A stretch of DNA of 64,000 bases. It comes from Hydrogenophaga sp. GTDB lineage: Bacteria > Pseudomonadota > Gammaproteobacteria > Burkholderiales > Burkholderiaceae_C. The stretch spans positions 6,549 through 70,548 of the forward strand of contig NZ_JBFWNX010000019.1 in assembly GCF_050250835.1 (NCBI RefSeq). The letters run 5' to 3'. Of this stretch, positions 14,775-33,246 are shown piece after piece. How positions within the stretch are numbered: the stretch's first letter is position 1; each line of letters opens with the position of its first letter. The notes beneath the pieces are model-generated. The model was given only the letters and a program-made list of their open reading frames with translations. It was not told the DNA's origin and did not search any database. A program made the position numbers and the translations under genes.

Positions 14775-15541
14775 GCGTGCAACACACCTGGGCGCAGTCC
14801 CTGCTGGATCCCTCGCAATCACCACCCGCAGGCCTCACCACCTGGAACCACAGCGATCCCTCCAAGCGCTTGGCGGTGTACCGCAACAACGTGCTGGTCT
14901 CGCTGGTGGACGCGCTGGCCCACACCTTCCCGGTGACGCAAGAACTGGTGGGAGAAGACTTCTTCCGCGCCATGGCCCAGGTCTTTGTGCGCGCCCACCC
15001 GCCCCGCACCCGCGTGCTCGCGCACTACGGCCAGGCGCTGCCGGGGTTCATCGCCCAGTTTCCGCCCGCCACCGGTCTGCCCTACCTGGCCGATGTGGCA
15101 CAACTCGAATGGCAACGCCTGCAGGCCCTGCATGCGGCCGACGCCAGCGCCATGGAGCCCGCCGCCATCGCCATGCTGCTGGGTGACGCCGCGAGCTTGC
15201 CTCAGGTGCATTGGCAACCGCATCCGAGCCTGCACCTGCTGCGCTCGCCTCATGCGGCCGTCTCGCTCTGGGCTGCCCACCAGGCCGACAGCGGCCTGGC
15301 GCTGGAACACATTGACACCACACGGGCCGAATCGGCCCTGGTGTTTCGCAGCGTGCTGAACGTGATGGTGCTGCAGGCCGATGCCGGCTTGGCCGCCCTG
15401 ACAGCCGGCCTGCTTGACAACGCCCCCTTCGGCGCAGCCATCGCCCAGGCCTTGAGCGCCGACCCCGCTTTCGACCCCGCGCAGGCCATGGCCGTGCTGA
15501 TCCGCCACGGGTTGCTGGTCGGCGCCCGGCACCCGCACTGA
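14771..15541 (+). CDS. bufC: DUF2063 (HvfC/BufC) MNIO partner protein
   Basis: [11 protein letters not shown]...[15 protein letters not shown]. Confidence 0.88.
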
Positions 15542-15607
15542 ACACCGGCACAGACCCCGTTTCGCCACTCACAACCTCTTTCAGCCACAACAACCCAGGA
15601 GACCGCC

Positions 15608-16138
15608 ATGAACACCCTCACCACTTCCCAAGGTACCGACACCAACGGCCTGATGTCGCGCCTGAGCGCGCTGCTGCGCACCGTGCACGGCATGATGGGC
15701 CACCTGCCCAACACGCTGCTGGCCTTCATCGCCCGCTTCTCCATCGCCGCCGTGTTCTGGAAATCGGGCCAGACCAAGATCGAAGGCCTGGCCATCGACA
15801 TCGTCAGCGGCGAGTTCACGCTGGGCATGCCCCGACTGTCCGACAACGCCGTGTTCCTGTTCAAGGAAGAATACAAATTGCCCATCCTGTCGCCAGAACT
15901 GGGCGCGACGATGGCCGCGCTGGGCGAACACATCCTGCCCATCTTCATCCTGCTCGGCCTGGCCACCCGCCTGTCGGCGCTGGGCCTGCTGGGCATGACG
16001 ATGGTGATCCAGCTCTTCGTCTACCCCGACGCCTACGCCACCCACGGCACCTGGGCCGCCGTGTTGCTCTACCTCATGGTCCACGGCCCGGGCAAGCTGT
16101 CGATCGACGCCTGGATTGCCAAGCGCTGCGCCGGCTGA
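15608..16138 (+). CDS. bufD: DoxX-family membrane protein
   Basis: FWKSGQTK, LFKEEY, GLATRLSAL, HGPGKLSID. Confidence 0.88.
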   Translation: MNTLTTSQGTDTNGLMSRLSALLRTVHGMMGHLPNTLLAFIARFSIAAVFWKSGQTKIEGLAIDIVSGEFTLGMPRLSDNAVFLFKEEYKLPILSPELGATMAALGEHILPIFILLGLATRLSALGLLGMTMVIQLFVYPDAYATHGTWAAVLLYLMVHGPGKLSIDAWIAKRCAG

Positions 16139-16163
16139 CCCGACCAACAAGCCGGAGCCGATC

Positions 16164-16964
16164 ATGGGCACGGTGTCTGGCTGGTTCGGCTCGCAACTGG
16201 CCCGTTACCTCTCCGCCGAGGTGCACCAGCATGGCAGCGCGCCGCCCACCCGGGCGGACCGGCTGCTGGCGACCCTGCAACCGGGCGATGTGCTGCTGGT
16301 GGAGGGCCACAGCCGCTTCAGCACCGCCATCAAATACCTCACACAATCGACCTGGTCGCACGCGGCCTTGTACGTGGGCAGCGAGGCACTGGTCGGCACC
16401 GGCGCCCCACCCGGACATTGTTTCGTGGAAGCCGATGTGAGTGACGGGGTGCGCACGGTGGGGGCCGCGCTGTTTGAGGCCTATCACACCCGCATCTGCC
16501 GACCGGTCGAACTGCGGGCCGAAGAGATCACACAGGTCGTGGGCTACGTGATTGCGCGTCTGGGCCACCAGTACGACCTGCGCAACGTGTGGGACCTCGC
16601 CCGCTACCTGTTGCCCACGCCACCCGTGCCACAGCGCTTTCGCCGACGCATGCTGTCGCTGGGCAGCGGCGACCCGACCCGCGCCATCTGCTCGACCCTG
16701 ATCGCCCAGGCCTTCCAGTCGATCCGCTACCCCATCCTGCCGCTGGTCAGCACCACCAGCCGCGACAGCCCGGACTGCCCCGCCTGCGTGGAAGAGATCC
16801 TGCAGCTGCGCCACCACAGCCTGTTTGCGCCCCGGGACTTCGACGTGTCACCCTACTTCGCCGTGGTCAAGCCGACGCTGGCGCAGGGCTTTGACTTTCA
16901 CAGTCTTCAATGGCAACCCGGTGCCGACGAGGTTGGTCCGGTCAGCACGCTGGCCAGTCGGTAA
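16164..16964 (+). CDS. YiiX/YebB-like permuted NlpC/P60 cysteine hydrolase
   Basis: LQPGDVLLVEG, WSHAALYVG (His), LGHQYD, AICSTLIAQAF (Cys). Confidence 0.8.
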   Translation: MGTVSGWFGSQLARYLSAEVHQHGSAPPTRADRLLATLQPGDVLLVEGHSRFSTAIKYLTQSTWSHAALYVGSEALVGTGAPPGHCFVEADVSDGVRTVGAALFEAYHTRICRPVELRAEEITQVVGYVIARLGHQYDLRNVWDLARYLLPTPPVPQRFRRRMLSLGSGDPTRAICSTLIAQAFQSIRYPILPLVSTTSRDSPDCPACVEEILQLRHHSLFAPRDFDVSPYFAVVKPTLAQGFDFHSLQWQPGADEVGPVSTLASR

Positions 16965-16994: not shown

Positions 16995-17408
16995 TCAGGC
17001 CTGCCCGTCCCGGATCGATGCGATCAACGGGCAACGCACACGCCCACGCGTCGATCCGCAGCGCGCCACCAGATCGGCCAGCACCTGCTCGATGCGCTGC
17101 AGGTCTGCGAGACGGGCGCGCACATCGGCCAGCTTGCGCTCGCCCTGTTCGCGTGCCTCGCCACAATGCGATCCATCTTCCAGCTTGAGCAGTTCCGCCA
17201 CCTCGTCCAGGCTGAAACCCAGGCGTTGCGCGGATTTGATGAAGCGCACCCGCGCCAGATCAGCATCGCCGTAGCGCCGAACTCCACCCTGAGGCCGCGC
17301 AGGTTCGGGCATCAGACCTTTGCGTTGGTAGAAGCGGATGGTCTCCAGGTTGACCCCGGCCGCCTCCGCCAGGACGCCGATGGTGAAGACCGGGGAAACA
17401 GCTCGCAT
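16995..17408 (-). CDS. merR: Hg(II)-responsive regulator MerR
   Basis: [23 protein letters not shown]; three Hg-binding Cys (SHC, ARC, RCP). Confidence 0.9.
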
Positions 17409-17413
17409 GGCAC

Positions 17414-17444
17414 TTGACTCCGTACTTGAGTACAGCCTTAAGCT
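17414..17444 (+). promoter_or_regulatory. mer operator/promoter
   Basis: TTGACT (17414-19), 19-bp spacer with CCGTAC-TTGA-GTAC dyad, TAAGCT (17439-44). Confidence 0.9.
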
Positions 17445-17450
17445 TACGCC

Positions 17451-17822
17451 ATGAATACCGATCACCCCAGCACATCACAAGAAAAGTCCGGCCTGTGGGC
17501 TCTGCTGACCGGAGGCCTCGCGGCCTTGTTCGCATCGGCCTGCTGTCTCGGCCCCTTGGTGCTGATCACCCTCGGCGTCTCCGGTGCCTGGATCAGCCGG
17601 TTGAGCCAGCTCGGGCCGATGCAGCCGGTGTTTCTGGCCGCCGCAGTGGTGGCGCTCGTGCTCGCATGGCGTCGCATCTGGCGCCCTGCCGCGGTTTGCT
17701 TGCCAGGCCAGGTGTGTGCCCGTCCAGCCGTCAAGCGCGTTTACAGGCTGTTGTTTGCCGCGGTGGTCGCCCTGCTCACCATCGCGTTGGTATTCCCGTT
17801 CATCGCCCACTGGTTTTACTGA
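17451..17822 (+). CDS. merT: Mercuric transport protein MerT
   Basis: SACCLGPL, second Cys pair C....VC, 3 TM helices. Confidence 0.88.
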
Positions 17823-17834
17823 AAGGCCCCTCCA

Positions 17835-18119
17835 ATGACCAAGATTGGGATCACGCTGGTACTGTGCCTGGCGGCAGGACCGGGTATCGCAGCGCCACAA
17901 ACCGTCACCCTGTCCATTCCCACCATGGACTGCCCGGTCTGCCCCATCACCATCAAGAAGGCGCTGACACAGGTCACAGGTGTGAGCCAGGCCCTGGTGA
18001 GCTACGAGCGGCGCGAAGCCACGGTGACGTATGACAACGCACGCACCACGGTTGAAGCGCTGACGCGAGCGACCGCGCAAGCGGGATACCCCTCCACCTT
18101 GTCCGGGCGCCAACCATGA
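17835..18119 (+). CDS. merP: Periplasmic Hg-binding protein MerP
   Basis: Signal peptide; HMA motif MDCPVCPITIKKAL. Confidence 0.85.
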   Translation: MTKIGITLVLCLAAGPGIAAPQTVTLSIPTMDCPVCPITIKKALTQVTGVSQALVSYERREATVTYDNARTTVEALTRATAQAGYPSTLSGRQP

Positions 18120-18337
18120 GCGCGGTCGAACTGATCTCGATGCTCACCTGTCCCCATTGCGGACACGGCAAAACCGAAACCATGCCCATCGATGCCTGCC
18201 AATGGTTCTACGAATGCGAACAGTGTCATGAGGTGCTCAAGCCCCTGCCCGGCGACTGCTGCGTGTACTGCTCCTATGGTTCGGTTCCCTGCCCGCCGAT
18301 ACAGGCCAATACCGATGGTTGCTGCAACGGCGCTTGA
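18116..18337 (+). CDS. GDCCVxC domain Cys-rich protein
   Basis: CPHC, C..FYEC..C, GDCCVYCSYGSVPCPP. Confidence 0.85.
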   Translation: MSAVELISMLTCPHCGHGKTETMPIDACQWFYECEQCHEVLKPLPGDCCVYCSYGSVPCPPIQANTDGCCNGA

Positions 18338-18393
18338 TCGGCATCAACAACCGATTGCCACAGAGCCGGTGTCACCCGCCTAGAATCCCGAAC

Positions 18394-18750
18394 ATGCGTT
18401 TCCTTCTCGCCCTGCTGCTGTGCCTGGCCATTCCCTTGCAGGGATGGGCTGCAGGCCGGGGTGAGCCAGCACCGTGCCCGATGGCGGCCACGATGGCGAT
18501 GCATGCGTCAGCAGGCCATGGCGACATGCCTGTTGCATCCGGCGACTGTTGCAACGACGCCGCCACCGCCGCCTTGACCGGCAAGCTCTGCAAGACCGGG
18601 CAAGAATGCCAAACGCCCACCGGTGGGTTCGTGGCCCCGGCCCAGGCCGCCGTGTACCCCTTGCCAGCGGCCGCTGTTCCAGCGTTCTTCACCTCTGCTC
18701 CTTCATTGGGCGCCTCCGCCAGCGTCTGGCGCCCTCCCACCCTTCTCTGA
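18394..18750 (+). CDS. Exported Cys/Met/His-rich protein (CopL/DUF2946-like) ending in WRPP
   Basis: Signal-like N-terminus, PCPM, CCND, CKTGQEC, C-terminal VWRPPTLL. Confidence 0.65.
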   Translation: MRFLLALLLCLAIPLQGWAAGRGEPAPCPMAATMAMHASAGHGDMPVASGDCCNDAATAALTGKLCKTGQECQTPTGGFVAPAQAAVYPLPAAAVPAFFTSAPSLGASASVWRPPTLL

Positions 18751-18852
18751 CTCCGTTGATCCGGACCGTGCGCCGCCATGCGGCGCCGTCTGCGTCGTGG
18801 CCGCGTGCATGTTGCTGCAGGCGGCCGGGTTCATTCCTCATGGAGCAGAGAC

Positions 18853-20220
18853 ATGCCATCCCCTTTTGCGGCCGCAGGCCGCACCGTGTATCCGGTCGTT
18901 CGCGGTCGGCGCTCGAAATCACCCTTCATCCCGCTGGCCGTTGCGCTCTGCCTGGCCGCACCCGGCTGGGCATCGGGCGCTGAACCCCTGAGCCTGCAGG
19001 CCGCCGTGCACGCGGCACAGGTGCGCTCCCAGGCACTGAGCGCGCAGGACGCTGCGGCCCGCTCGGCACGCGAAGCCGCCGTGGCAGCGGGTCAGCGCCC
19101 GGACCCGGTGCTGCGGTTCTCGATCAACAGCTTGCCCATCGAAGGCGACAACCGCTTCAGCACATCGGCCGAGCCCATGACCAGCAAGGCCGTCTCTTTG
19201 ATGCAAGCGTTCCCCGCCGAGAGCAAGCGCCAGGCTCGTTCGCAGCGCCTGGAGCGCGAAGCCGAGGTAGCCCTGGCCACGCGGGCGGTGCGCGCGGCCA
19301 ACCTGCGGCGAGACACGGCCATCGCCTGGTTTGAACGGCAAGCGCAGGAGAAGCGCGTCGCCCTGCTGCGGGCGCAGCTGAACGAAAACCGCCTGCAGCT
19401 CCAGGCCGCCGAAGCGGCCACCCGCGGCGCTCTGCCCGCTGGCGCCAACAGCGCCTCGGTGGACTGGCTGAATGCGCGCGACGCGGTCGCCCAGGCGCAG
19501 CAAGCCCTGCTGGGCGCTGAGGCCAGCCTGGTCAACGCACGCCAGGCGCTGGCCCGCTGGACGGGTGAGACGCCCGACCGGCCCTTGGGTGATGCGCCCG
19601 CGCTGGCGCCCTTGGCACTGTCGGCCACGGGCTTCGCGCCCCACCTGCAGCAACACCCGGACCTGGCCTTGGCGAGCGCGCGCCTGGCCGCCGCCGAGGC
19701 CGACGCCGAGCTGGCCCGACAGGATCGCCAGCCCGACTGGAGCGGCGAGCTGATGTTCAGCCACCGCCGCCCGCGCTTCGACAACATGGTTTCGCTCGCG
19801 GTGTCGGTGCCGCTGCAATGGGACCGTGCGCAGCGCCAGGACCGTGTGCTGGCCGCGCGCCTGGCGCGCGTGGACGAACTGCAGGCCGAGCGCGAAGAGC
19901 GCTCGCGCGGGGCGCTCGCCGAGACCGAGCGCTGGCTGGCGGCCTTGCAGGCCGGTCTGGAGCAATCGGCACTGATCGACAGCGCGCGTTTGCCATTGGC
20001 GCGCCAGCGCGTGGACCTGGCGCAGGCGGCCTACCGCGGCGGCAACGCCCGGCTGGGCGATGTACTCGCGGCGCGCCGCATGGCCCTGGCCCTGGAGATG
20101 GAGCGCGTCGACTTGCAGCTCTCGACCGCGCGCCTGTGGGCCCGGCTCGAATACCTCCTGCCTGTCGCTTCACCCCCAGGTGCTGCACCCGTCGACCCGA
20201 CCGCCACCACAAAGGAATGA
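18853..20220 (+). CDS. cusC: Outer-membrane factor of heavy-metal RND efflux (CusC/TolC)
   Basis: GGAG SD, PDP.LRF, helical OMF repeats, first gene of the C-B-A cluster. Confidence 0.85.
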   Translation: MPSPFAAAGRTVYPVVRGRRSKSPFIPLAVALCLAAPGWASGAEPLSLQAAVHAAQVRSQALSAQDAAARSAREAAVAAGQRPDPVLRFSINSLPIEGDNRFSTSAEPMTSKAVSLMQAFPAESKRQARSQRLEREAEVALATRAVRAANLRRDTAIAWFERQAQEKRVALLRAQLNENRLQLQAAEAATRGALPAGANSASVDWLNARDAVAQAQQALLGAEASLVNARQALARWTGETPDRPLGDAPALAPLALSATGFAPHLQQHPDLALASARLAAAEADAELARQDRQPDWSGELMFSHRRPRFDNMVSLAVSVPLQWDRAQRQDRVLAARLARVDELQAEREERSRGALAETERWLAALQAGLEQSALIDSARLPLARQRVDLAQAAYRGGNARLGDVLAARRMALALEMERVDLQLSTARLWARLEYLLPVASPPGAAPVDPTATTKE

Positions 20221-20224
20221 CACC

Positions 20225-21892
20225 ATGAAAACATCCACCTGGATCGGGCTGACGGCTGTCGCCCTGGCCACCTTGACCGCCGTCGGCTACGGCGCCTGGA
20301 CCGTTGGCATGAATGCCGGCATGTCCATGGCAACACCCCAGGGAGCACCCGCCGACGCCGGCGCGGCCACCCCTTCCACACAAGACCCCAGCGGCTGGAC
20401 GATCACGCAAGGCTTCGAGGCCACCGAACGCCACATGCGCGAGGGCCTCAAGGCCGGGGATGTGGACCCGATGACGGGGCTGAAAATCCTGAATTACCAC
20501 GACCCCATGGTCCCAGGCAAGAACTTCGACGCGCCGGGCAAATCACCCTTCATGGACATGCTGCTGGTGCCCCGCTACGCCGGCGGCGGTGCTGCCGACA
20601 CCGGTGGCGTCAGCGTGAGTGCCCGCGTGCAACAAAACCTCGGGCTGCGCACGGTGGCAGTGACCGAAGGCCAGCTCGACAGCGCGGTGTCGGTGGTCGG
20701 CAACGTGGCCTGGAACGAACGCGACCAGGTGCTGGTCAGCGCTCGGGCGCTGGGTTTTGTCGAACGCCTGCACGTGCGCGCCGCGCAGGACCGGGTTGCA
20801 AAGGGTGCACCATTGGCCGACATCTACGTGCCCAGCTGGGTGGCGGCGCAGGAAGAGTATCTGGCCGTGGCCCGCATGGCCGAACAAGACCCCCAGTTGG
20901 TGTCCCTGCGCGATGCCGCTGCACAGCGCATGCGCCAGGCGGGCATGAGCCCGGTGCAGATTGATCGTGTGGTGAACAGCGGCAGCCTGCAGCCCCGTTT
21001 CACGCTGACCGCACCCCTGGATGGCGTCGTCACGGAACTGATGGTGAGCGAAGGCGCAACCGTGATGCCAGGCATGGCCCTGCTGCGGCTGCAGGGCACG
21101 GGCACCGTCTGGGCCGAAGGCCAGGTGCCCGAGAGCCAGGCCGCCCAGCTCACCACCGGCGCATCCGTCAGCGCCACCAGCCCGGCCGCCCCAGGCCAGA
21201 CCTTCACCGGGCGCCTGCAGGCGCTGCTGCCCTCGGTCGACCCGGCCACACGCACGATCAAGGCACGGCTGGAACTCGCCAATCCCCAGGGCCGGCTGGT
21301 GCCGGGCATGTTTGTGCAGATGCGCTTCGCCAACCCCGATGCGAGGCAGGTTTTGCTGCTGCCCAGCGACGCGGTGATCCACACCGGACAGCGCAGCGTG
21401 GTGATGCTGGCTGAAGGTGACGGCCGTTTCTCGCCGGTCGAAGTGCGCACCGGTCGCGAAGCGGGCGATCAGACCGAGATTCTGCAAGGTCTGCAGTTGG
21501 GGCAAAAGGTGGTGCGTTCGGGCCAGTTCCTGATCGACTCCGAAGCCAGCCTCAACGGCTTTCTGGCGCGGCTGAGCCCTCCGACAGAAGCTGCGATGGA
21601 CAAAGCGGCAGCGATGCCCGAGAAGGCTGGCGCCGTATCGCCAACCGCGCACCAGACGCCCGCCAAAGTCAAGGCGGTCGATGGCGACACCGTCACGCTG
21701 AATCACCCGGCCATACCGGCGCTCAAATGGCCGGCCATGACCATGGATTTCCGGTTGCCACCAGCAGACCAGCGGCCGAAGCATCTGTCGGCAGGCCAGT
21801 CGGTCCAGATCGAATTTGAGATGCGCGACGGTGACGTGCCGCAGATCACGCGCATCGAACCCCGCACCGCAGCCACCGGAGCGAAACGATGA
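20225..21892 (+). CDS. cusB: Membrane fusion protein CusB with C-terminal CusF-like domain
   Basis: YHDPM..KSPFMDM motif, MFP core, C-terminal VTLNH...[10 protein letters not shown]. Confidence 0.88.
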
Positions 21893-24800
21893 TCGCGCGC
21901 CTGATCCACTGGAGCATCGCCAACCGCTTCCTGGTTCTGATGGCCACGGTGATGATCACCGCCTGGGGCGTGGTGTCGATGCTGCGCACGCCTCTGGATG
22001 CGCTGCCCGACCTGTCGGACACCCAGGTCATCATCCGCACCAGTTGGCCCGGGCAGGCGCCGCAGCTGGTGGAAAACCAGGTCACCTACCCACTGACCAC
22101 CACCATGCTCTCGGTGCCCGGCGCCAAGGCGGTGCGCGGGTTCTCGATGTTTGGGGACAGCTTTGTCTACGTGCTGTTCGACGACGGCGTGGACCTGTAC
22201 TGGGCGCGCTCGCGGGTGCTCGAATACCTGAACCAGGTGCAGTCCCGGCTGCCGGCCACGGCCAAATCGTCACTCGGCCCCGACGCCACAGGCGTGGGCT
22301 GGATCTACCAGTACGCGCTGATCGACCGCAGCGGGCGGCAGGACCTGGCCCAGCTGCGCTCGCTGCAGGACTGGTTCCTGCGCTTCGAACTCAAGACGGT
22401 GCCCGACGTGGCCGAGGTCGCCAGCATCGGCGGCATGGTGCGCCAGCACCAGATCGTGCTCGACCCAGACAAACTGGCGACCTACGGCATCACGCAGCAG
22501 ATGGTGGGTGATGCCGTGGCGCGCGGCAACCAGGAGGCCGGCGGCTCGGTGCTGGAGCTTGGCGAGGCCGAATACGCGGTGCGTGCCAACGGCTACCTGA
22601 AAACCCTGGACGACTTCCGGGCGCTGCCGCTGAAGACCACCGACGCCGGTGTGTCGGTGCGGCTGGGCGACGTGGCGCGCGTGCAGATCGGGCCCGAAAT
22701 GCGGCGCGGCATCGGTGAGCTCAATGGCGAAGGCGAAGCGGTCGGCGGGGTGGTGGTCATGCGTTCGGGCAAGAACGCTTTGCAGACCATTGAAGCGGTC
22801 AAGGTTCGGCTGGCCGAATTGCAGCGTGGCCTGCCCGAGGGGGTGGAAATCGTGCCCGTGTATGACCGCTCTGGCCTGATTCAGCGCGCTGCCAACAACC
22901 TGGGCATCAAGCTGCTGGAGGAGTTTGGTGTGGTCGCCCTGGTGTGCGCGCTGTTCCTGTTTCACCTGCGCAGCGCCCTGGTGGCCATCGTTTCGCTGCC
23001 GCTGGGCATTCTGGTGGCCTTCATCGTGATGCAGCAGCAGGGCGTGAACGCCAACATCATGTCGCTCGGCGGCATCGCCATCGCCATTGGCGCCATGGTG
23101 GACGCGGCGGTGGTGATGATCGAAAACGCCCACAAGCACCTGGAGCGCTGGGCGCACGAACACCCGGGCGAGACGCTCGAAGGCGAGCCGCGCTGGCAAG
23201 TGATCGGCCACGCGGCGGCGGAGGTCGGCCCCGCCTTGTTCTTCTCGCTGCTGATCATCACCCTGAGCTTCATCCCGGTGTTCACCCTGCAGGCGCAAGA
23301 GGGGCGGCTGTTTGCGCCACTGGCCTACACCAAGACCTACGCCATGGCGGCGGCCGCCGGTCTGGCGGTCACCTTGATTCCGGTGCTGATGGGTTACCTG
23401 GTGCGCGGCCGCATTCCCGAAGAGACCGCCAACCCGCTCAACCGCGGACTCATCGCGCTGTACCGGCCGGTGCTGGATGCCGTTCTCAAGGGGCCGAAGC
23501 GCACTCTGCTGGTGGCCGCCGTGCTGCTGGGTTTGAGCGTCTGGCCGCTACAGCACATCGGCGCCGAGTTCATGCCGCCGATGGACGAGGGCGACCTGCT
23601 CTACATGCCGACCGCGCTGCCCGGTCTGTCGGCAGCCAAGGCCACCGAACTGCTGCAACTGACCGACCGCCTGATCAAGACCGTGCCCGAGGTGGCCAGC
23701 GTGTACGGCAAGGCGGGCCGCGCCGACAGCGCCACCGACCCGGCACCGCTGGAGATGTTCGAGACCACGATCCAGTTCAAGCCGCGCGAGCAATGGCGCG
23801 CGGGCATGACACCAGACAAACTGGTGGACGAACTCGACCGCACCGTGCGCGTGCCCGGCCTGGCCAACATCTGGGTGCCACCGATCCGCAACCGCATCGA
23901 CATGCTCGCCACCGGGATCAAGAGCCCGGTGGGGGTGAAGGTGGCCGGCGCCGACCTCGCCACCATCAACCGCCTCACGCAGCAGATTGAAACGGTGGTC
24001 AAGGGCGTGCCCGGTGTCACCAGCGCGCTGGCCGAGCGCCTGAGCGGTGGGCGCTACATCGACGTCGACATCCGCCGCGACGAAGCGGCGCGTTACGGTC
24101 TGAACATCGCCGACGTGCAGGACGTGATCTCGGGTGCGGTGGGCGGCATGAACATCGGCGAGACCGTGGAAGGGCTGCAGCGTTATCCGATCAACCTGCG
24201 TTACCCGCGCGACGCGCGCGACTCGCTCGCAGCACTGCGCGAGCTGCCCATCGTCACACCGCGCGGCCAGCGTCTGGTGCTGGCCGACGTGGCGCGCCTG
24301 AGCATCGCCGACGGTCCACCCATGCTGCGCAGCGAAAACGCACGCCTGGCCGGGTTCGTCTATGTGGACATCCGCGACCGCGACCTGCGCGGCGCCGTGC
24401 TGGACATGCAAAAGGCAGTGGCTGAGCAGGTGAATTTGCCGGCTGGCTATTCGGTGTCGTGGTCGGGCCAGTTCGAGTTCCTGGAGCGCGCCAGCGCCCA
24501 GCTCAAGCTGGTGGTGCCGTTCACGCTGCTGGTGATCTTCCTGCTGCTCTACCTGACCTTCCGCCGCCTCGACGAAGCCCTGCTCATCATGGCCACGCTG
24601 CCCTTCGCCCTCATTGGCGGCATCTGGCTGCTCTGGACCCTGGGGCACAACCTGTCGGTGGCCAGCGTGGTCGGCTTCATCGCGCTGGCCGGCGTGGCGG
24701 CCGAGTTCGGCGTGATCATGCTGCTGTACCTGAAGCAGGCCTGGGCCGCGCGGCTGGCCAAAGGGCTGGACACCGACACCGACCTGCTCGACGCGATCCG

Positions 24801-25059
24801 CGAAGGCGCGGTATTGCGCGTGCGGCCCAAGGCGATGACGGTGGCGGTGATCGTGGCCGGCCTGCTGCCCCTGTTCTGGGGCGCGGGGGCGGGCAGCGAG
24901 GTGATGCAGCGCATCGCCGCACCGATGGTGGGCGGCATGCTCAGCGCACCGCTGCTGTCCATGCTGGTGGTGCCGGTGGTTTATCGTCTGATGCGCAGAC
25001 CCAAGCGACAAGTCCAGCTGGGTTTGACGACCCAGGGCACCCCAACGCCATCCAACTGA
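21889..25059 (+). CDS. cusA: Cu(I)/Ag(I) RND efflux pump CusA
   Basis: 1056 aa HME-RND; [19 protein letters not shown] Met positions; [12 protein letters not shown]. Confidence 0.93.
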
Positions 25060-25065
25060 CCCTTC

Positions 25066-27348
25066 ATGCAAGCCTCCGAACAACCCATCCTGCGCGACCT
25101 GGTCCTGGTCGGCGGTGGCCACAGCCACGTGGTCGTCTTGCGCATGCTGGCCATGCAGCCCGAGCCCGGCCTGCGCATCACGCTGATCTGCACCGACATC
25201 GACACGCCCTACTCCGGCATGCTGCCGGGCTATATCTCGGGCCACTACCGCTTTGACGATGTGCACATCGACCTGGGCCGCCTGGCGGCCTTCGCCGGGG
25301 CGCGCTTCATCCACGGCGAGGTGACAGGTCTGGACCGCGCCAACCAGCGCGTGCAGCTGCGTGACCGGCCTGCCGTGCCCTACGACCTGCTCTCCATCAA
25401 CACCGGCTCCACGCCCAACATGCGCCAGATCAAGGGCGCACAGGCGCACGCGGTGCCGGTCAAGCCCATCGCCCAGTTCAACCAGCGCTGGCTGCACCTG
25501 CTGGCGCGCGTGCGCGAGTTGCACCGCCGTTTCACGATCGCGGTCGTGGGCGGCGGTGCGGGCGGGGTGGAGCTGGTGCTGTCCATGCAGTACCGGCTGC
25601 GCAACGAGCTGCAGAAACTCGGCCGCAACCCCGACCTGCTGCACTTTGTGCTGCTCACGGCGGGCGACACCCTGCTGCCGACACACAACCCCGGGGTCCG
25701 TGCCCGATTTGTGCGCGTGCTCAAGGAGCGCCATGTGGCCGTGCACACCCGTGCGGAAGTGAATCAGGTCTCGCCCGGCTGCCTGCACACACAGGACGGC
25801 CGCACCTTCGACGCCGATGAAACGATGTGGGTCACCCAGGCCGGCGGACCGGCCTGGCTGCAAAGTACCGGCCTGGCGCTGGACGAACACGGCTTCATCC
25901 AGGTCAACGACCGGCTCCAGACGCTGGACGACCCGAAGATCTTCGCCGCGGGCGACGTGGCCTCGTTCAGCCGCCGTCCGCTGGAAAAGGCCGGTGTGTT
26001 CGCGGTGCGCATGGGCCCGCCGCTGGTGAAAAACCTGCGCCTGGCCTTGCGTGGCCAGCCGCTGGTGGTCTACCACCCTCAACGCAGCTGGCTGGCGCTG
26101 ATCTCCACCGGCGACCGCTACGCCGTGGCCTCGCGCGGCTGGCTCGGCTTTGCTGGCGCCTGGGTCTGGACCTGGAAGGACAGCATCGACCGCCGCTTCA
26201 TGCGCAAATTCACCGAGCTGCCCGCCATGGCGCCCGGTACCGCGGCATCGGCCGCACCGGCCAGCCTCGCGCTCAGCGCCGAAGAATCGCGCCAGGCCAT
26301 CTCGGCCATCGCCATGCGCTGCGGCGGCTGCGGCGCCAAGGTGGGTGCCAGCATCCTGAGCCGCGCGCTGGGCAGCCTGCAGCCGGTCGAGCGCGACGAC
26401 GTGCTGATCGGTCTGCACGCCCCCGACGACGCCGCCGTGGTGCGCGTGCCGCCGGGCAAGGCGATGGTGCACACGGTGGACTTCTTCCGCAGCTTCATCG
26501 ACGACCCCTACCTGTTCGGCAAGGTCGCGGCCAACCACGCCCTGGGCGACATCTTCGCCATGGGCGCCGAGCCCCAGTCCGCCACCGCCGTCGCCAACGT
26601 GCCGCCGGGCCTGGAAGCCAAGGTCGAAGACCTGCTGTTGCAGATGATGACCGGCGCGGTCGAGGTGCTCAACGCCGCCGGTTGCGCCCTGGTCGGCGGC
26701 CACACCGGCGAAGGCCGCGAGCTGGCACTGGGCTTCGCCATCAACGGCCTGATCGACGACAGCATGGAAGGCGTCCTGCGCAAGGGTGGCATGTTGCCCG
26801 GTGACGTGCTGCTGCTGACCAAACCCATCGGCACCGGCACCCTGTTCGCCGCCCACGCGCGGCATTTCCCCAAAGGCCGCTGGATCGATGCGGCGCTGAC
26901 ATCGATGGTCGTGTCCAACCAGGCCGGCGCTCAGATTCTGCGGGCGCACGGCGCCACCGCCTGCACCGACCTGACCGGCTTCGGCTTGCTCGGGCATCTG
27001 GTGGAAATGACGCGCCCCTCGGGCGTGGACGCCGAACTGCAGCTGAGCGCCCTGCCCTTGCTGGACGGCGCCGTGGAATGTGTGCAGGCCGGCATCGTCA
27101 GCTCGCTGCAGCCGGCCAATGTGCGGCTGCGCCGCGCCTTGCGCAACGCCGACGCCTTTGTGAACGACCCGCGCTACCCGCTGCTGTTCGACCCGCAGAC
27201 GGCCGGTGGACTGCTGGCCAGCGTGCCGGCCGACCGGGCGGCCGACTGCATCCGGGCCCTCAAGGCCGCGGGCTACCCGCAGACCGCCGCCATCGGCCGC
27301 ATCAGCGGTGCGTCGGACGCGCTGGAGCCCGTGGTGCTGACGCCCTGA
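25066..27348 (+). CDS. selD: FAD-dependent oxidoreductase-selenophosphate synthetase fusion
   Basis: N-terminal GGGHSH, YSGMLPG, GGGAGG; C-terminal RCGGCGAK, DDAAV, HTVDFF, ACTDLTGFGLLGH, DPQTAGGLL. Confidence 0.9.
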   Translation: MQASEQPILRDLVLVGGGHSHVVVLRMLAMQPEPGLRITLICTDIDTPYSGMLPGYISGHYRFDDVHIDLGRLAAFAGARFIHGEVTGLDRANQRVQLRDRPAVPYDLLSINTGSTPNMRQIKGAQAHAVPVKPIAQFNQRWLHLLARVRELHRRFTIAVVGGGAGGVELVLSMQYRLRNELQKLGRNPDLLHFVLLTAGDTLLPTHNPGVRARFVRVLKERHVAVHTRAEVNQVSPGCLHTQDGRTFDADETMWVTQAGGPAWLQSTGLALDEHGFIQVNDRLQTLDDPKIFAAGDVASFSRRPLEKAGVFAVRMGPPLVKNLRLALRGQPLVVYHPQRSWLALISTGDRYAVASRGWLGFAGAWVWTWKDSIDRRFMRKFTELPAMAPGTAASAAPASLALSAEESRQAISAIAMRCGGCGAKVGASILSRALGSLQPVERDDVLIGLHAPDDAAVVRVPPGKAMVHTVDFFRSFIDDPYLFGKVAANHALGDIFAMGAEPQSATAVANVPPGLEAKVEDLLLQMMTGAVEVLNAAGCALVGGHTGEGRELALGFAINGLIDDSMEGVLRKGGMLPGDVLLLTKPIGTGTLFAAHARHFPKGRWIDAALTSMVVSNQAGAQILRAHGATACTDLTGFGLLGHLVEMTRPSGVDAELQLSALPLLDGAVECVQAGIVSSLQPANVRLRRALRNADAFVNDPRYPLLFDPQTAGGLLASVPADRAADCIRALKAAGYPQTAAIGRISGASDALEPVVLTP

Positions 27349-27383: not shown

Positions 27384-27411
27384 TGTAAGGACCCGGGACA
27401 TCGCAGCGACT
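27384..27411 (+). promoter_or_regulatory. ECF promoter variant A (TGTAAG-N17-CGACT) for the TVP38-reductase operon
   Basis: TGTAAG 27384-27389, CGACT 27407-27411. Confidence 0.8.
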
Positions 27412-27468: not shown

Positions 27469-29619
27469 ATGAAACGAATCCTGATCCTTGCCACCGTCGT
27501 GCTGCTGGTGGCCGCCTATTTCGGGCTGGGGCTGAACCGGTACCTGACCCTCGCCGCCGTGCAGGAGCGCCTGGGGGAATTTGAAGCCATGCGTCAGGCG
27601 GCCCCTGTCGCCACGGCGCTGGGCTTCTTTGGCCTGTATGTGCTGGCCACCGCCTTGTCCCTGCCCGGCGCGGTCATCCTCACGCTGGCGGCGGGCGCCC
27701 TGTTCGGCTTGGTGGCCGGCACGCTGATCGTCTCGTTCGCCTCCAGCGTGGGCGCCACGCTGGCGTTTCTGGCCTCGCGCCACCTGCTGCGCGACGGCGT
27801 GCAGGCGCGCTTTGGCAACCGGCTCAAGGCCATCAACGACGGCATGGCCCAAGACGGCGCGCTGTACCTGTTCACGCTGCGCCTGATTCCGGTGTTCCCG
27901 TTTTTCCTGGTCAACCTGCTCATGGGCCTGACCCCGATCCGCACCGGCACCTATTACGCGGTCAGCCAGCTGGGCATGCTCGCGGGCACCCTGGTCTACG
28001 TCAACGCCGGCACGCAGCTCGGCCAACTCAACAGCCTCTCGGGCATCCTCTCGCCCGGCGTCCTGCTTTCTTTTGTCCTGCTCGGAGTGTTTCCCATGAT
28101 CGCCAAGTCCGCCCTCGGTTTTCTGCAACGTCGCCGGGTGTATGCCAAGTGGCAGCGCCCCAAGACCTTTGACCGCAACCTGGTGGTCATCGGTGGCGGC
28201 GCGGCGGGTCTGGTCACTTCTTACATCGCGGCGGCCGTCAAAGCCAAGGTCACGCTGGTCGAGGCGCACAAGATGGGCGGCGACTGCCTGAACTACGGCT
28301 GCGTGCCCAGCAAGGCGCTGATCAAGTCGGCCAAGCTGGCCACCCAGATGCGCCGCGCCGACCACTACGGCCTGGAGGCCGCCACCCCCGCCTTCAGCTT
28401 CAGGCAGGTGATGGCGCGGGTGCACAAGGTCATCAGCGAGGTGGCGCCACACGACAGCGTGGAGCGCTACACCGGGCTGGGCGTGGAGGTATTGCAGGGC
28501 CGCGCCCGCATCGTCGATCCCTGGACGGTCGAGATCGCGCTCAACGGCGGCGGCACCCAGCGCCTGACCACGCGCAGCATCGTCATCGCCGCCGGTGCCC
28601 GCCCCTTCGTGCCGCCGCTGCCCGGCCTGGACGATGTGGGCTACGTCACCAGCGACACGCTGTGGGACGAGTTCGCCCAACTTGACGCGCCCCCGGCCCG
28701 CCTGGTGGTGCTGGGCGGTGGACCGATCGGCTGCGAGCTGGCGCAGAGCTTTGCGCGCCTGGGCTCGCAGGTGACCCAGGTGGAAATGGCGCCGCGCATC
28801 ATGATCCGGGAAGACGAAGAGGTCTCGGAACTGGCGCGTGACTCGCTGGTGCGCGACGGTGTGGATGTGCTCACCGGCCACAAGGCGCTGCGCTGCGAGC
28901 GCGAGGGCGAACGCAAATTCATCGTGGTGGAGCACCAGGGCCAGGAAAAGCGCATCGAGTTCGACGCGCTGCTGTGCGCGGTCGGCCGCGTGGCGCGGCT
29001 GCAGGGCTACGGTCTGGAAGAGCTGGGCATCCCCACGCAGCGCACGGTGGTGGTCAACGAATACCTCGAAACGCTGTACCCCAACATTTTTGCCGCGGGC
29101 GACGTGGCCGGGCCGTTCCAGTTCACCCACACGGCCGGGCACCAGGCCTGGTACGCCGCCGTCAACGCCCTGTTCGGCAGCTTCAAGAAATTCAAGGTCG
29201 ATTATTCGGTGATCCCCTGGGCCACGTTCATCGAGCCCGAGGTGGCGCGTGTGGGCCTGAACGAACAGGACGCGAAGGAAAAGAAGATCCTTTACGAGGT
29301 CACGAAATACGGCATCGACGACCTGGACCGCGCCATCGCCGACGGCTCTGCGCACGGCTTCGTCAAGGTGCTGACCGTACCGGGCAAAGACCGCATTCTG
29401 GGCGTGACCATCGTGGGCGAACATGCCGGCGACCTGCTGGCCGAGTTCGTGCTGGCCATGAAACACAGCCTGGGATTGAACAAGATCCTGGGCACCATCC
29501 ACACCTACCCCACGCTGGCCGAGGCCAACAAATACGCCGCTGGGGAATGGAAACGCGCCCACGCGCCCCAGGGCGTGCTGGCCTGGCTGGGCCGCTACCA
29601 CGCCTGGCGCCGAGGCTGA
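27469..29619 (+). CDS. TVP38/SNARE-associated membrane domain fused to a pyridine nucleotide-disulfide oxidoreductase (MerA/LpdA-like)
   Basis: LFTLRLIPVFPF DedA/TVP38 motif; GGDCLNYGCVPSK; GGGPIG; no C-terminal CC. Confidence 0.9.
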   Translation: MKRILILATVVLLVAAYFGLGLNRYLTLAAVQERLGEFEAMRQAAPVATALGFFGLYVLATALSLPGAVILTLAAGALFGLVAGTLIVSFASSVGATLAFLASRHLLRDGVQARFGNRLKAINDGMAQDGALYLFTLRLIPVFPFFLVNLLMGLTPIRTGTYYAVSQLGMLAGTLVYVNAGTQLGQLNSLSGILSPGVLLSFVLLGVFPMIAKSALGFLQRRRVYAKWQRPKTFDRNLVVIGGGAAGLVTSYIAAAVKAKVTLVEAHKMGGDCLNYGCVPSKALIKSAKLATQMRRADHYGLEAATPAFSFRQVMARVHKVISEVAPHDSVERYTGLGVEVLQGRARIVDPWTVEIALNGGGTQRLTTRSIVIAAGARPFVPPLPGLDDVGYVTSDTLWDEFAQLDAPPARLVVLGGGPIGCELAQSFARLGSQVTQVEMAPRIMIREDEEVSELARDSLVRDGVDVLTGHKALRCEREGERKFIVVEHQGQEKRIEFDALLCAVGRVARLQGYGLEELGIPTQRTVVVNEYLETLYPNIFAAGDVAGPFQFTHTAGHQAWYAAVNALFGSFKKFKVDYSVIPWATFIEPEVARVGLNEQDAKEKKILYEVTKYGIDDLDRAIADGSAHGFVKVLTVPGKDRILGVTIVGEHAGDLLAEFVLAMKHSLGLNKILGTIHTYPTLAEANKYAAGEWKRAHAPQGVLAWLGRYHAWRRG

Positions 29620-29632: not shown

Positions 29633-30679
29633 ATGGCCAAGACACCCGCCCCGCAGGTCCATCTGCAACTGCCCGACGGCCCTGAACGCGACGCCCTGCG
29701 CGCCGGTCTGCTGGCCCTGCAATGCATCCCGGTGAACCTGCCGCCGCCGGGTGCAGCGCTCACAGAGCAGCTGGAACACCTGGCGCAGGACCCCAGGGCG
29801 GTGGTGTTCCTGGACATCTCCAATGCCCTGCCCAGGGTCACTCACCGGTTCGACCGCATCCTCAAGACCTGGCCCCAGGCCCTGAAGGCCCGAACGGTGC
29901 TGACCCGGCTGGCCGCCGGGCACGTGAGCCCCGCCGACCGCACCTGGGTGCAGTCGCTGGGGTTTGCCGACCTGATCGCTTCGTTCGAAGACCACGCGCC
30001 TGCATCGCCCTTGCGGCGATCGCTGGACATGGTCGCGGCCACCGTGGGCTTGCCTGCGCTGGCGGCCGGGGACCTTGACCGCTACCTGCGCGCCGTCCCC
30101 ACCGCGCCGTCCAGCCTGTCGCCCCGCGCGCTCATCCGCGCTCGCACAGGACTTGAAGCCGAGGCGCTGGCGGACCTGCTGCAGTTCAAGCTCGACATCC
30201 GCGACCGCAGCTACCACCTCAAGAAGTACCCCGCCTGTTTTCTCGCGACCGAGGCGGTGGCCTGGATGGGCTCGCATTTCAAACTGGGGCGCGCGGAGGT
30301 GATCGAAGTTGGCGTGGCCTTGCAGACCCTGGGCCTGCTCTACCACGTAGCCCACGAACAGGCTTTTGCCGACGAGGACCTGTTCTTCCGGCTGCGCGCA
30401 CCGGCCCAGTTGCCCAACGTGAACCTGGGGCTGGTCCTGCAGACCCTGCGCGATCGATTGGTGGTGGTGGACCGCAGCTACCTCGGCAAGGACTACCCGA
30501 GCTGCTGGATCGGCCAAGAGGCGGTCGATGCGCTCTGCGCCAAACGCAACATCACGCGCCATGAGAGCCAGCTGATCCTGCACCGGCTGATGCAGTTCGG
30601 GTGCTTTGAACACGTTGTCGGCGAACATGGTTTCATCGACGGCAACTTCTTCTACCGGTTCAACGAAGGCCTGGCCTGA
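29633..30679 (+). CDS. Protein with two DEP domains and a degenerate receiver-like N-terminus
   Basis: IRDRSYHLKKYPACFLATEAVAW...LYHV..EQAF.DEDLFFRL and VVDRSYLGKDYPSCWIGQEAVD...FEHV..EHGFIDGNFFYRF. Confidence 0.8.
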   Translation: MAKTPAPQVHLQLPDGPERDALRAGLLALQCIPVNLPPPGAALTEQLEHLAQDPRAVVFLDISNALPRVTHRFDRILKTWPQALKARTVLTRLAAGHVSPADRTWVQSLGFADLIASFEDHAPASPLRRSLDMVAATVGLPALAAGDLDRYLRAVPTAPSSLSPRALIRARTGLEAEALADLLQFKLDIRDRSYHLKKYPACFLATEAVAWMGSHFKLGRAEVIEVGVALQTLGLLYHVAHEQAFADEDLFFRLRAPAQLPNVNLGLVLQTLRDRLVVVDRSYLGKDYPSCWIGQEAVDALCAKRNITRHESQLILHRLMQFGCFEHVVGEHGFIDGNFFYRFNEGLA

Positions 30680-31378: not shown

Positions 31379-32008
31379 ATGGCCGATGAACCCCGCATCG
31401 TCATCTTCGCCAAGGCACCCGTGGCGGGCCTGGCAAAGACCCGGCTGATCCCGGCGCTGGGTGCACAGCGGGCGGCCCGACTCGCTGCCAAGATGCTGAA
31501 CCACGCGGTGGAACAGGCCCTGGCCAGCGAGGTCGGTCCGGTGGAGCTGTGCGTGACGCCAGCGCCGCAAGACCCGATGTGGGCCGGGCGGTTGCCCAGG
31601 CATGCAGCGTTGACCTTCAGTGACCAGGGCGATGGCGATCTGGGCGAGCGCATGGCGCGGGCCGCACGGCGCACGCTGGAGGCCGGTCGGCCGGTGCTGC
31701 TGATGGGAACCGACTGCCCCGCCCTCACCGCAGAGCGCCTGCGCTCCGCCAGCGAGGCCCTGATGACGAGCGATGCCGTCATGATCCCGGCAACCGATGG
31801 CGGCTATGTGCTGCTGGGACTGCGACGTTTTGCCGTCAGCCTGTTCCATGACATCGCATGGAGCACCGAGCACGTGGCAGCAGCCACGCGAGATCGGCTT
31901 TGCGCCCTGGGTTGGCCCTTGAACGAAAAGGCACCGCTACACGACATCGACGAGCCCGATGACCTGCGTTGGCTCCCGACCGACTGGGACGGCGTTAGTC
32001 GGGTCTGA
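31379..32008 (+). CDS. TIGR04282/DUF2064 CofC-like nucleotidyltransferase-fold protein
   Basis: IFAKAP..G.AKTRL, QGDGDLGERM, GTDCP, PATDGGYVLLG, WST, DIDEPDD. Confidence 0.88.
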   Translation: MADEPRIVIFAKAPVAGLAKTRLIPALGAQRAARLAAKMLNHAVEQALASEVGPVELCVTPAPQDPMWAGRLPRHAALTFSDQGDGDLGERMARAARRTLEAGRPVLLMGTDCPALTAERLRSASEALMTSDAVMIPATDGGYVLLGLRRFAVSLFHDIAWSTEHVAAATRDRLCALGWPLNEKAPLHDIDEPDDLRWLPTDWDGVSRV

Positions 32009-32606
32009 ACACCTGCATGCCCGTGGCGATGCGCGTGAGGATCGTGAGCGCGCACAAGGCGGAAAACCCATAGGCCAACACACTGAACGCTTCAGGCCAC
32101 AGGCACATCAGCACGAACACCGTGATGGTTTCTGTGCTCTCGGAGAGCCCCCCCAGGTAGTAGATGCCCTTGCCAGCGTACGCGACGCTTGACAGCCCTC
32201 TTTGAGCGGCCAGCACCGCAAAAGCCAGAAAACTGCTGCCCGTACCGACGAACGAAAACAGCAACACAGTGGAAGCGAGGGCATGCTGCTCTGGCTTGGC
32301 GAGCGCGAACGCCATCGGAATGGACGCATAGAAAAGAAAATCCAGGGCGATGTCGAGGAACGCGCCTCGGTCCGTGGGCTGTGTCAATCGGGCCATGGTG
32401 CCGTCCAGCCCATCGGCAAGGCGATTCAGAAAGATCGTGATCAAGGCCCACTGAGACATCCCCAGAGCGATCAACGGCACTGAAAGCAGCCCGATCACAA
32501 AGCCCACCCAAGTGAGGTGATCGGCCTTCAATCCCCAGTTCAACAGCCGCAAGGCAACGGCTTGCAGCGGGGATTTGAGTCGCTGGTTGAGCGTTGCGTC
32601 AAACAT
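31995..32606 (-). CDS. ynjF: CDP-alcohol phosphatidyltransferase family (YnjF-like)
   Basis: DGLDGTMAR...GAFLDIALD signature. Confidence 0.88.
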   Translation of the reverse strand: MFDATLNQRLKSPLQAVALRLLNWGLKADHLTWVGFVIGLLSVPLIALGMSQWALITIFLNRLADGLDGTMARLTQPTDRGAFLDIALDFLFYASIPMAFALAKPEQHALASTVLLFSFVGTGSSFLAFAVLAAQRGLSSVAYAGKGIYYLGGLSESTETITVFVLMCLWPEAFSVLAYGFSALCALTILTRIATGMQVFRPD

Positions 32607-33246
32607 GCTGGGCCTGCCACTGGTGAATGTCCATGACCCGCCCACCCTGAGGCACATCGCCTGGGTCGTGGGTGACCAACAGGGTAGGAATGCCTTGACG
32701 CGCGATTTGCTCGAACACCAGCTCGCGGAACTGCACACGCAAACTGGCGTCGAGCTTGGAAAATGGTTCGTCCAGCAGCAGCGCACAAGGCTCGGCCAGC
32801 AGCGCCCGCATCAAACTCACACGGGCGCGCTGCCCGCCCGACAATGTGGCGGGGTCGCGGTCGTGGAATCCGGCCAGACCGATGTCCTGCAACGTCTGCT
32901 CCACCCGGGCGCGCCGCGCGGCAGCGCTACCCACCGCGCCCGGCAAGGCAAAGGCCAGGTTCTGCCCCACGCTCAGGTGCGGAAACAGCAGGTCGTCCTG
33001 GAACAGGATGCCGATGCCCCGCGATTCCACCGGCAGGCCATCGCGCCGCTGGCCGTCCAGCCACAGCTCGCCACTGGCCTGGAAAGCGGGGTCGAGATCG
33101 CCCACCAGCCAGTTCAGCAAGGTGGATTTGCCCGAGCCCGAGGCGCCGGTGATGGTCGCCACGGCACCAGCCTCCACCCGCAGGTTCAGGTTCGTGACCA
33201 GCGCCAGGCGGCCCTGCGCAATGGTGAGGTTCTTGATGTCCAGCAT
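32599..33246 (-). CDS. ynjD: ABC transporter ATPase (YnjD-like)
   Basis: GASGSGKS, LSGGQ, LLDEPF. Confidence 0.88.
   Translation of the reverse strand: MLDIKNLTIAQGRLALVTNLNLRVEAGAVATITGASGSGKSTLLNWLVGDLDPAFQASGELWLDGQRRDGLPVESRGIGILFQDDLLFPHLSVGQNLAFALPGAVGSAAARRARVEQTLQDIGLAGFHDRDPATLSGGQRARVSLMRALLAEPCALLLDEPFSKLDASLRVQFRELVFEQIARQGIPTLLVTHDPGDVPQGGRVMDIHQWQAQHV

Follow-up and report, generated by a model that had tools for sequence, protein, structure and literature searches.

An accessory Ndh-SelD fusion in Hydrogenophaga, probably brought next to cusA by insertion of mobile mer/cus genes

A 64,000-nucleotide stretch of contig NZ_JBFWNX010000019.1 of Hydrogenophaga sp. (hereafter the window) encodes a 760-residue protein in which a flavoprotein resembling type II NADH dehydrogenases is fused to a selenophosphate-forming SelD, and its gene (here selD) begins directly behind cusA of a copper/silver efflux operon. 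This protein is probably a known Ndh-SelD fusion that serves as an accessory second SelD, its proximity to cusA stemming from a mobile mer/cus insertion rather than from any conserved partnership between the two genes. Compared across related loci, the cusA-selD wiring appears to be a recent, lineage-restricted accident of that insertion without conserved functional partnership, because cusA adjoins the fusion in one of 80 related loci, the DNA upstream of the fusion differs among relatives, and a second cusCBA set of the same genome, on contig C2, is not followed by selD.

By its sequence, the open reading frame (ORF) appears to be a functional member of the known Ndh-SelD family. A flavoprotein domain of the type II NADH dehydrogenase (NDH-2) kind, for flavin adenine dinucleotide (FAD) and NAD(P)H, occupies residues ~10–385 and is followed by an Ala/Pro-rich linker (~386–415) and a Cys-type SelD (~416–760); Pfam placed Pyr_redox_2 at residues 11–303 and AIRS plus AIRS_C at 454–748. 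The NCBIfam model TIGR03169 ('Nterm_to_SelD') matched residues 11–382 with 503.9 bits against a curated cut-off of 310, and TIGR00476 (selD) gave 285.6 bits against 125. The model TIGR04369 ('oxidoreductase/SelD-related fusion, not SelD') was rejected at 462.7 bits, below its cut-off of 700. The SelD loop reads MRCGGCGAKVG, with the active-site arrangement C419-G-G-C422-G-A-K425, and in the alignment with E. coli SelD (PDB 3U0O) its GGCGAK lies over AGCGCK, which makes C422 the equivalent of Cys17, A424 of Cys19 and K425 of Lys20. The same alignment showed the SelD motifs DDAAV, TxDFF, DIFAMG, GGH and TDxTGFG to be retained, and C42, C419, C422, K425, D454, D455, D472 and D495 were invariant in an alignment of 22 homologs. 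The initial annotation, which had called a flavoprotein-SelD fusion with the catalytic Cys and Lys retained, was right on both counts. Both halves are under purifying selection, with dN/dS (omega) of 0.11–0.21. An AlphaFold2 model built from the 22-sequence alignment was good for the N-domain (pLDDT ~85) and poor for the linker and the SelD half (mean pLDDT 62.3, pTM 0.52). Close relatives carry the NCBI name 'selenide, water dikinase SelD'; the homologous-protein search returned more than 8000 matches, those listed being close relatives only (79–100% identity), and the more distant fusion contexts described below were taken from loci found by genome searches.

Ndh-SelD fusions were described in 2008, all with a CxxC in the SelD loop, and they made up ~40% of the Cys-type SelDs in ocean metagenomes (Zhang et al. 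2008, PMC2398784); they are the commonest bacterial SelD fusion and are predicted to keep selenophosphate synthesis (Mariotti et al. 2015, PMC4561486). No report of an experimental test of the synthetase activity of Ndh-SelD or of a reductase activity of its N-domain was found in these two papers or in a 2022 review, no dedicated literature search having been made. The window protein shares with this family (COG1252 domain plus SelD) the domain order, scores above the cut-offs of both models, the Cys-type loop with CxxC and an aquatic bacterial host. It shows no difference at the protein level and departs from the family in context only, as a second SelD and as a gene behind cusA; the protein itself is a routine member of a catalogued family to which it adds nothing new. 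Its C-terminal 340 residues align end to end with the SelDs of E. coli (3U0O, E = 1.7e-45) and Aquifex aeolicus (2YYE/2ZOD) and retain the equivalents of Cys17, Lys20 and the Asp/Asn ligands of ATP-Mg, whereas Cys19 is replaced by Ala, an extra Cys stands three residues before Cys17, and a 415-residue extension precedes the domain. The N-domain aligns over ~370 residues with type II NADH dehydrogenases (Caldalkalibacillus NDH-2, 4NWZ; YjlD, 9PXK; E = 1e-16 to 1e-18) and has the two dinucleotide-binding motifs. However, this sequence similarity is low and does not imply quinone reduction, and the window domain differs in being fused to SelD.

The fusion is the second, accessory SelD of this genome. 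A canonical E. coli-type SelD is encoded on contig C4 (434 bits; 548 bits with NF002098) and SelU on contig C5 (TIGR03167, 347 bits against a cut-off of 219.75). The genome yielded no match to selA, no tRNA-Sec among its 47 tRNAs and no match to the SenB model TIGR04348, and tblastn with SenB and SenA returned only EgtB. This EgtB, located beside the canonical SelD, scored 557 bits as EgtB and 364 bits as SenA (NF041186), under the cut-off of 420. Within the window, selA, selU, senA, senB and tRNA-Sec were all absent, while selB was not searched for. The initial annotation had reported no selenoprotein or selenouridine machinery nearby, which is true of the window but not of the genome, and the genome-wide search for sel genes that it had recommended confirmed the absence of selA and tRNA-Sec and revealed SelU. 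The genome thus encodes the selenouridine (SeU) trait through SelU and lacks the selenocysteine (Sec) trait, which comprises selA and tRNA-Sec. Among 61 Hydrogenophaga genomes, SelU was found in 60, SenB in 41 and the fusion in 19, and 15 of the 19 fusion carriers also had SenB. The selenouridine trait is therefore part of the genus core with its own canonical SelD, and the fusion is accessory. Nor does the fusion look like a SelD dedicated to SelU: selU lies on another contig, SelU is present in 60 genomes vs 19 with the fusion, and a canonical SelD is available. Canonical and fused SelD occurred together in this genome and in one other among 401 sampled Pseudomonadota genomes.

The ancestry of the fusion points to selenoneine (sen) gene clusters. 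A gene scoring as SenB (413 bits, cut-off 300) stands immediately before the fusion in Limnohabitans, Polaromonas, Ramlibacter and related loci, its stop codon overlapping the start codon of the fusion, and SenA (454 bits, cut-off 420) and EgtD are encoded nearby. In 20 loci from distant genomes of the phylum, 10 of the 14 fusions adjoin selU and two adjoin SenB. A maximum-likelihood tree of 33 fusions resolved two deep clades, one SelU-linked and from other classes, the other with support of 100; the latter begins with SenB- or SenA-adjacent branches and has the Hydrogenophaga fusions (8 rows, SH-aLRT 99) nested inside it. The window fusion is 73–74% identical in the SelD half and 60–62% identical in the Ndh half to SenB-adjacent fusions of another family, and 40–45% identical to SelU-adjacent ones. 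Because of this nesting, the window protein can be classed from its phylogeny as a SenC-type fusion in a genome without SenA and SenB. It shares its clade with the SenC fusions that overlap the SenB stop codon in Limnohabitans, Polaromonas and a gammaproteobacterial family, and differs from the senABC clusters in the lack of both partner genes. The SelU-linked Ndh-SelDs of Alphaproteobacteria and other groups have the same architecture, and SelU is likewise encoded in the window genome; however, those fusions adjoin selU and form a separate deep clade, whereas here selU is on a different contig with the canonical SelD at its disposal. Two small Hydrogenophaga genomes have SenB directly before the fusion. 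At C4:290878-294363 this genome carries EgtB-EgtD-SelD, and the sister genome G027 carries SenA-SenB-SelD at the corresponding place (L109, C1:1003000-1022900). It seems that the selenoneine genes on C4 were lost or replaced and that both SelDs remained.

This history raises the question of whether the fusion is a functionless leftover, that is, a SenC-type SelD orphaned by the loss of SenA and SenB and expressed by accident behind cusA. The absence of both sen genes here, set against the frequency of SenB among congeners and fusion carriers, would fit, as would the loss of the native selD 5′ region and the ability of the canonical SelD to serve SelU. On the other hand, the ORF is intact with all catalytic residues retained, and omega is 0.11–0.14 against the closest comparators, including L071, a locus that shares the cus context. 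We consider the leftover explanation very unlikely; the fusion is not a decaying remnant, because purifying selection acts on both of its halves.

The junction with cusA suggests how the gene may be expressed. The ORFs and the junction sequence agree with the initial annotation that selD starts at 25066, 6 bp after the cusA stop at 25059. With TGA-CCC-TTC-ATG at the junction, cusA and selD share one reading frame, and the selD ATG lacks a Shine-Dalgarno-like run of purines in front of it. The shared frame is taken as chance (1 in 3), there being no Sec machinery in the genome, and Sec read-through of the in-frame TGA was ruled out because selA and tRNA-Sec are absent. A promoter and terminator scan of positions 16900–32300 recognized none for selD, the single promoter-like site being on the wrong strand, and terminator-like sites were no more frequent there than in shuffles. 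A C(C/T)TATGAT box located 33–35 nt before the fused selD ATG was found in 13 of 25 other Hydrogenophaga loci (among them L005, L006, L009, L010, L012, L013, L015, L019, L022, L025 and L026, with a TGTGAT version in L007) and is missing in the window clade. The box is kept in spite of divergent sequence further upstream, and it may be selD's own −10 element or a regulator site. Because of the 6-bp spacer, the lack of a recognized promoter or terminator and of a Shine-Dalgarno sequence, and the missing TATGAT box, selD in this strain very likely depends on the upstream metal-efflux transcript. Its place as the last gene of that transcript, as first proposed from the gene order, is thus plausible for this strain clade. 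The locus probably offers a clean natural case of a gene that lost its own 5′ region and was captured by a metal-efflux operon.

To see whether this arrangement is conserved, we mapped the window proteins onto 80 loci encoding relatives that are 71–92% identical. The one locus with cusCBA upstream of the fusion was L071, and the exact 6-bp junction was common to three contigs only (L106, L107 and L108), all from strains that are 96–98% identical. In L071 the cusA stop lies ~58 nt before the selD ATG, and the 3′ end of the window cusA runs into this intergenic stretch, the CusA tail reading through the homologous sequence. The window genes upstream of selD make up a normal set of cusC, cusB(-cusF) and cusA; however, canonical CusCFBA operons for Cu/Ag efflux end at cusA, and selD was seen as a further downstream gene only in the window strain clade and L071. 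The cus operon is accordingly no conserved unit including selD: beyond the one related locus, the association was confined to strains at least 96% identical, and the C2 cusCBA set, whose CusA is 84% identical, has no selD behind it but genes that look ParA-like or otherwise mobile-element-like, judging only by their first translated residues. From one Hydrogenophaga locus to the next, the 70 nt before the fused selD ATG are wholly different, and what lies upstream is hvfX, merA, the 3′ end of a tRNA or unrelated DNA. The gene orders are HvfC-HvfX-fusion-ABC in L005, HvfC-HvfX-fusion-TIGR04283-TIGR04282-ABC in L006 and L012, fusion-VTT-PNDR-TIGR04283-TIGR04282 in L007, L016-18 and L076, and HvfC-HvfX-peptidase-MerT-MerP-MerA-fusion-VTT-PNDR-DEP-transferases in L014 (ABC, ATP-binding cassette transporter; the remaining families are described below). 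The hvf operon thus directly precedes the fused selD in L005, L006 and L012, and the window layout equals that of L014 with cusCBA added and merA removed. In H. pseudoflava and H. flava (L020 and L021; positions 9930-10000), the fused selD comes right after the apparent 3′ end of a tRNA gene, as would be expected of a hot spot for insertions at the 5′ flank of selD. Both L012 and L071 come from the metagenome-assembled genome HGW-Betaproteobacteria-9, which thus has one fusion copy in an hvf context and one in a mer/cus context; these could be either two real copies or two strains binned together.

These comparisons also bear on the proposal, made in the initial annotation, of a functional coupling between selenium chemistry and Cu/Ag (and perhaps Hg) stress. 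Read-through induced by metals would then make selenide or selenophosphate, sequestering metals as selenides or otherwise protecting the cell. The tight in-frame 6-bp junction and the lack of a recognized selD promoter speak for such a coupling, as do insertions at one and the same spot in several lineages (mer in L014; mer plus cus in the window, in L071 and in L106-L108), the metal-related island around selD, with its operon for Cu-binding peptides of the ribosomally synthesized and post-translationally modified type (hvf) and its GDCCVxC protein, and the retention of the arrangement over a synonymous divergence (dS) of ~0.36. However, 79 of the 80 related loci lack the cusA adjacency, the 5′ flank of selD is rearranged quite generally (other genomes have SenB, hvfX, a tRNA gene or unrelated DNA there), and no selD accompanies the paralogous cusCBA on C2. 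Moreover, the product of SelD, selenophosphate, is a biosynthetic donor, and we know of no role for it in metal precipitation. We therefore regard the coupling as unlikely; it found no support in the comparison with related loci and is best read as a by-product of island insertion.

The accessory-SelD reading, with its mobile insertion, could work as follows. The flavin domain would use NAD(P)H to reduce selenium bound on C419/C422, as a selenotrisulfide or perselenide, to selenide, as has been proposed in the literature since 2008, and the SelD domain would phosphorylate the selenide with ATP. In the simplest version, the fusion would act as a second selenophosphate supplier to SelU, since SelU is the sole known selenophosphate consumer encoded, with neither SenA/SenB nor a Sec system; this genome would have lost, or never had, SenA and SenB. 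A mobile merR-merTP/cusCBA block would have been inserted between the hvf operon and selD at a rearrangement-prone spot and would have replaced the native 5′ region of selD. In the small strain clade, selD would now owe its transcription to read-through from the metal-efflux genes and its translation to stop-start coupling with cusA. Several points weigh against this reading. The cusA-selD arrangement persists between the window and L071, and since the selD genes sharing it differ by a dS of ~0.36, it is not brand-new and could be selectively kept. The SeU trait alone does not explain a second, flavoprotein-fused SelD under purifying selection in a genome without SenA/SenB, as SelU has a canonical SelD in every sampled family member. 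The reductase role of the N-domain is a proposal, and the poor model of the SelD half (pLDDT 62, pTM 0.52) gives no conclusion on domain contacts. Finally, co-transcription and translational coupling are inferred from spacing only. A genome with canonical and flavoprotein-fused SelDs and no selenoneine or Sec genes nevertheless suits the question of what the flavoprotein half contributes, which has stood since 2008.

The recurring neighbors of the fusion suggest a possible partner. The most frequent one, no more than 10 kb away in 33 of 79 related loci, is VTT-PNDR, which joins a VTT/DedA membrane domain to a disulfide reductase resembling glutathione reductase. It has a CLNYGC redox pair and a C-terminal H-x4-E dyad and lacks the C-terminal Cys pair of the MerA type. 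A YnjBCD-like ABC transporter also recurs, SenB and SenA recur in sister genera, and the putative transferases TIGR04283 and TIGR04282 stand beside the fusion in 17 of the 80 loci, in tandem downstream in Hydrogenophaga and divergently upstream in Limnohabitans. A second set of these modules, non-collinear with the window, was found on C4 in the order EgtB, EgtD, canonical SelD, RidA-like, HAD, stand-alone TIGR03169 flavoprotein (332 bits), rhodanese-like ORF, VTT-PNDR, APH kinase, TIGR04283, TIGR04282, YnjBCD-like ABC and HvfX-like, the RidA-like, HAD and rhodanese-like assignments being read from translations rather than from family-search matches. Identities to the window counterparts are 71% for VTT-PNDR, 51% for the APH kinase, 56% for TIGR04283, 44% for TIGR04282, 46–59% for the YnjBCD-like ABC proteins and 40% for HvfX-like. 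Simple segmental duplication was ruled out as the origin of the paralogous sets on C4 and C19, as order and orientation differ and identities are only 44–71%. On C4 and in the sister genome G027, SelD is followed by the stand-alone TIGR03169 flavoprotein and then by VTT-PNDR, and in G410 VTT-PNDR lies directly upstream of the fusion. In the best-supported view of these gene orders, the flavoprotein and VTT-PNDR plausibly form a selenium reduction and supply pair able to serve SelD. In the proposed mechanism, VTT-PNDR and the flavoprotein domain could likewise make up a selenium supply and reduction route to the SelD domain, and a testable route of selenium uptake and reduction is suggested by the DedA-disulfide-reductase fusion turning up repeatedly together with SelD or the TIGR03169 flavoprotein.

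Alternatively, the fusion could feed a new selenium-metabolite pathway of its ECF-controlled neighbors (ECF, extracytoplasmic function), namely VTT-PNDR, the DEP protein, TIGR04283, TIGR04282, the CDP-alcohol transferase, the APH kinase and the YnjBCD-like importer, leading for example to a seleno-sugar or seleno-lipid. The two arrangements of the transferases beside the fusion would be in keeping with this, as would the second, non-collinear module set beside the canonical SelD on C4 and the finding that in the 61 Hydrogenophaga genomes every TIGR04283 gene lies ~2–7 kb from a TIGR03169-family gene (fused in 7 genomes, stand-alone in 16). There is also a precedent in SenB, whose glycosyltransferase reaction consumes selenophosphate (Kayrouz et al., bioRxiv 10.1101/2022.04.13.486033). 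Nevertheless, of the 401 sampled Pseudomonadota genomes, 208 encode TIGR04283 and only ~31 of these have any SelD. Clusters of the stand-alone flavoprotein, VTT-PNDR and TIGR04283/TIGR04282 also occur in three other families, lying far from SelD in G349, G079 and G104 and without any SelD match in G220; phylum-wide, most genomes with TIGR04283 have neither SelD nor a TIGR03169 relative. The transferases stand under their own ECF-type promoter, separate from selD, and NCBIfam names them as arsenosugar-pathway enzymes, though this genome has no ArsS-like radical SAM gene. We hold such a pathway to be improbable, and the transferase module is best supported as a neighbor with its own ECF-type promoter. 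The suggestion in the initial annotation that the fusion supplies a selenium metabolite to the adjacent glycosyltransferase pathway thus drew support from the 17 loci and lost it with the ~85% of TIGR04283-bearing Pseudomonadota genomes that lack SelD. There is likewise only a slim chance that the TIGR03169 flavoprotein (fused or stand-alone), VTT-PNDR, TIGR04283/TIGR04282, the APH kinase, the CDP-alcohol transferase and the YnjBCD-like importer form one metalloid-processing pathway, for which the accessory SelD fusion, freed from selenoneine synthesis, would give selenophosphate toward an undescribed selenium sugar or lipid under Cu/Ag/Hg control in the strain clade.

The possibility that the fusion is the SelD of an arsenosugar-type radical SAM cluster was rejected, since a tblastn search of the genome for ArsS-like, TIGR04168-like and linked MTAP-like genes came back empty. 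In relatives such as L007, L014, L053, L070 and others, genes for an ArsS-like radical SAM protein, a TIGR04168-like phosphoesterase and an MTAP-like protein accompany TIGR04283/TIGR04282 beside the fusion, these identities being read from the sequences rather than from a family search.

The ECF promoter that the initial annotation had placed at 27384 belongs to a set of nine exact matches to TGTAAK-N(15-19)-CGACY in the window, where 0.16 would be expected by chance (Table 1), and L071 has it in the corresponding position. The selD stop and the probable ATG of the next gene are 120 bp apart, and the motif falls within this gap. Genes for a YeeE-type sulfur/selenium transporter and a Cys-rich peptide are among those preceded by such motifs, as are the hvf-like, VTT-PNDR and Ynj-like ABC operons. 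From their positions, the nine motifs look like one ECF-type regulon that surrounds selD without including it. At the right end of the ECF/selD/transferase region, an integrase gene adjoins guaA (37281-40605); it matched a P4-like integrase domain model weakly (113 bits against a cut-off of 434), and in L106 this integrase gene comes after the kinase gene. The whole region may have been integrated as an island.

Table 1. Coordinates of the features in the window and of the second module set on contig C4
Feature	Position	Strand	Remarks
ECF-type motif copies (window)	1147, 1183, 4561, 6696, 9607, 13245, 13342, 27384, 36101
ECF-type promoter copy, then hvf-like operon	13342..16964	+	promoter copy at 13342-13369
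mer module without merA	16995..18750	.
merR	16995-17408	-
merT	17451-17822
merP	17835-18119
GDCCVxC protein	18116-18337
Small Cys-rich exported ORF	18394-18750
cusC-like outer-membrane efflux protein	18778..20220	+	OEP domain
cusB fused to C-terminal CusF domain	20060..21892	+	Pfam/NCBIfam; true start may be downstream of 20060
cusA, CusA/CzcA-family resistance-nodulation-division (RND) pump, 1056 aa	21889..25059	+	TIGR00914, 1341 bits
cusA stop TGA, 6-nt spacer CCCTTC, selD ATG	25057..25068	+	sequence; probable translational coupling
Ndh-SelD fusion, 760 aa	25066..27348	+	ORF map, translation, Pfam, NCBIfam, structure-sequence alignment, 22-sequence alignment
ECF-type promoter motif TGTAAG-N17-CGACT	27384..27411	+	next gene's probable ATG at 27469
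VTT-PNDR	27469..29619	+
Tandem-DEP-domain protein	29633..30679	+	domain search
TIGR04283 GT2 transferase	30697-31371	+
TIGR04282 CofC-like nucleotidyltransferase	31331-32008	+
Convergent run: CDP-alcohol phosphatidyltransferase, YnjBCD-like ABC transporter (ATPase, permease, binding protein), APH-family kinase	31995..37207	-
ECF-type motif in convergent run	36101-36128
Second module set, non-collinear with the window	C4:290900-309000		L085 covers 286000-304000

Upstream of the cus genes, the hvf-like operon encodes a DUF2282 precursor, an MbnB/TglH-like enzyme, HvfC-like and HvfX-like proteins and a C92 peptidase-like protein. The mer module that follows has no merA in the window, and a MerA-like gene occupies that place in L014 and L071. 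The GDCCVxC family represented in this module is a selenoprotein in some organisms, and the window encodes its Cys form.

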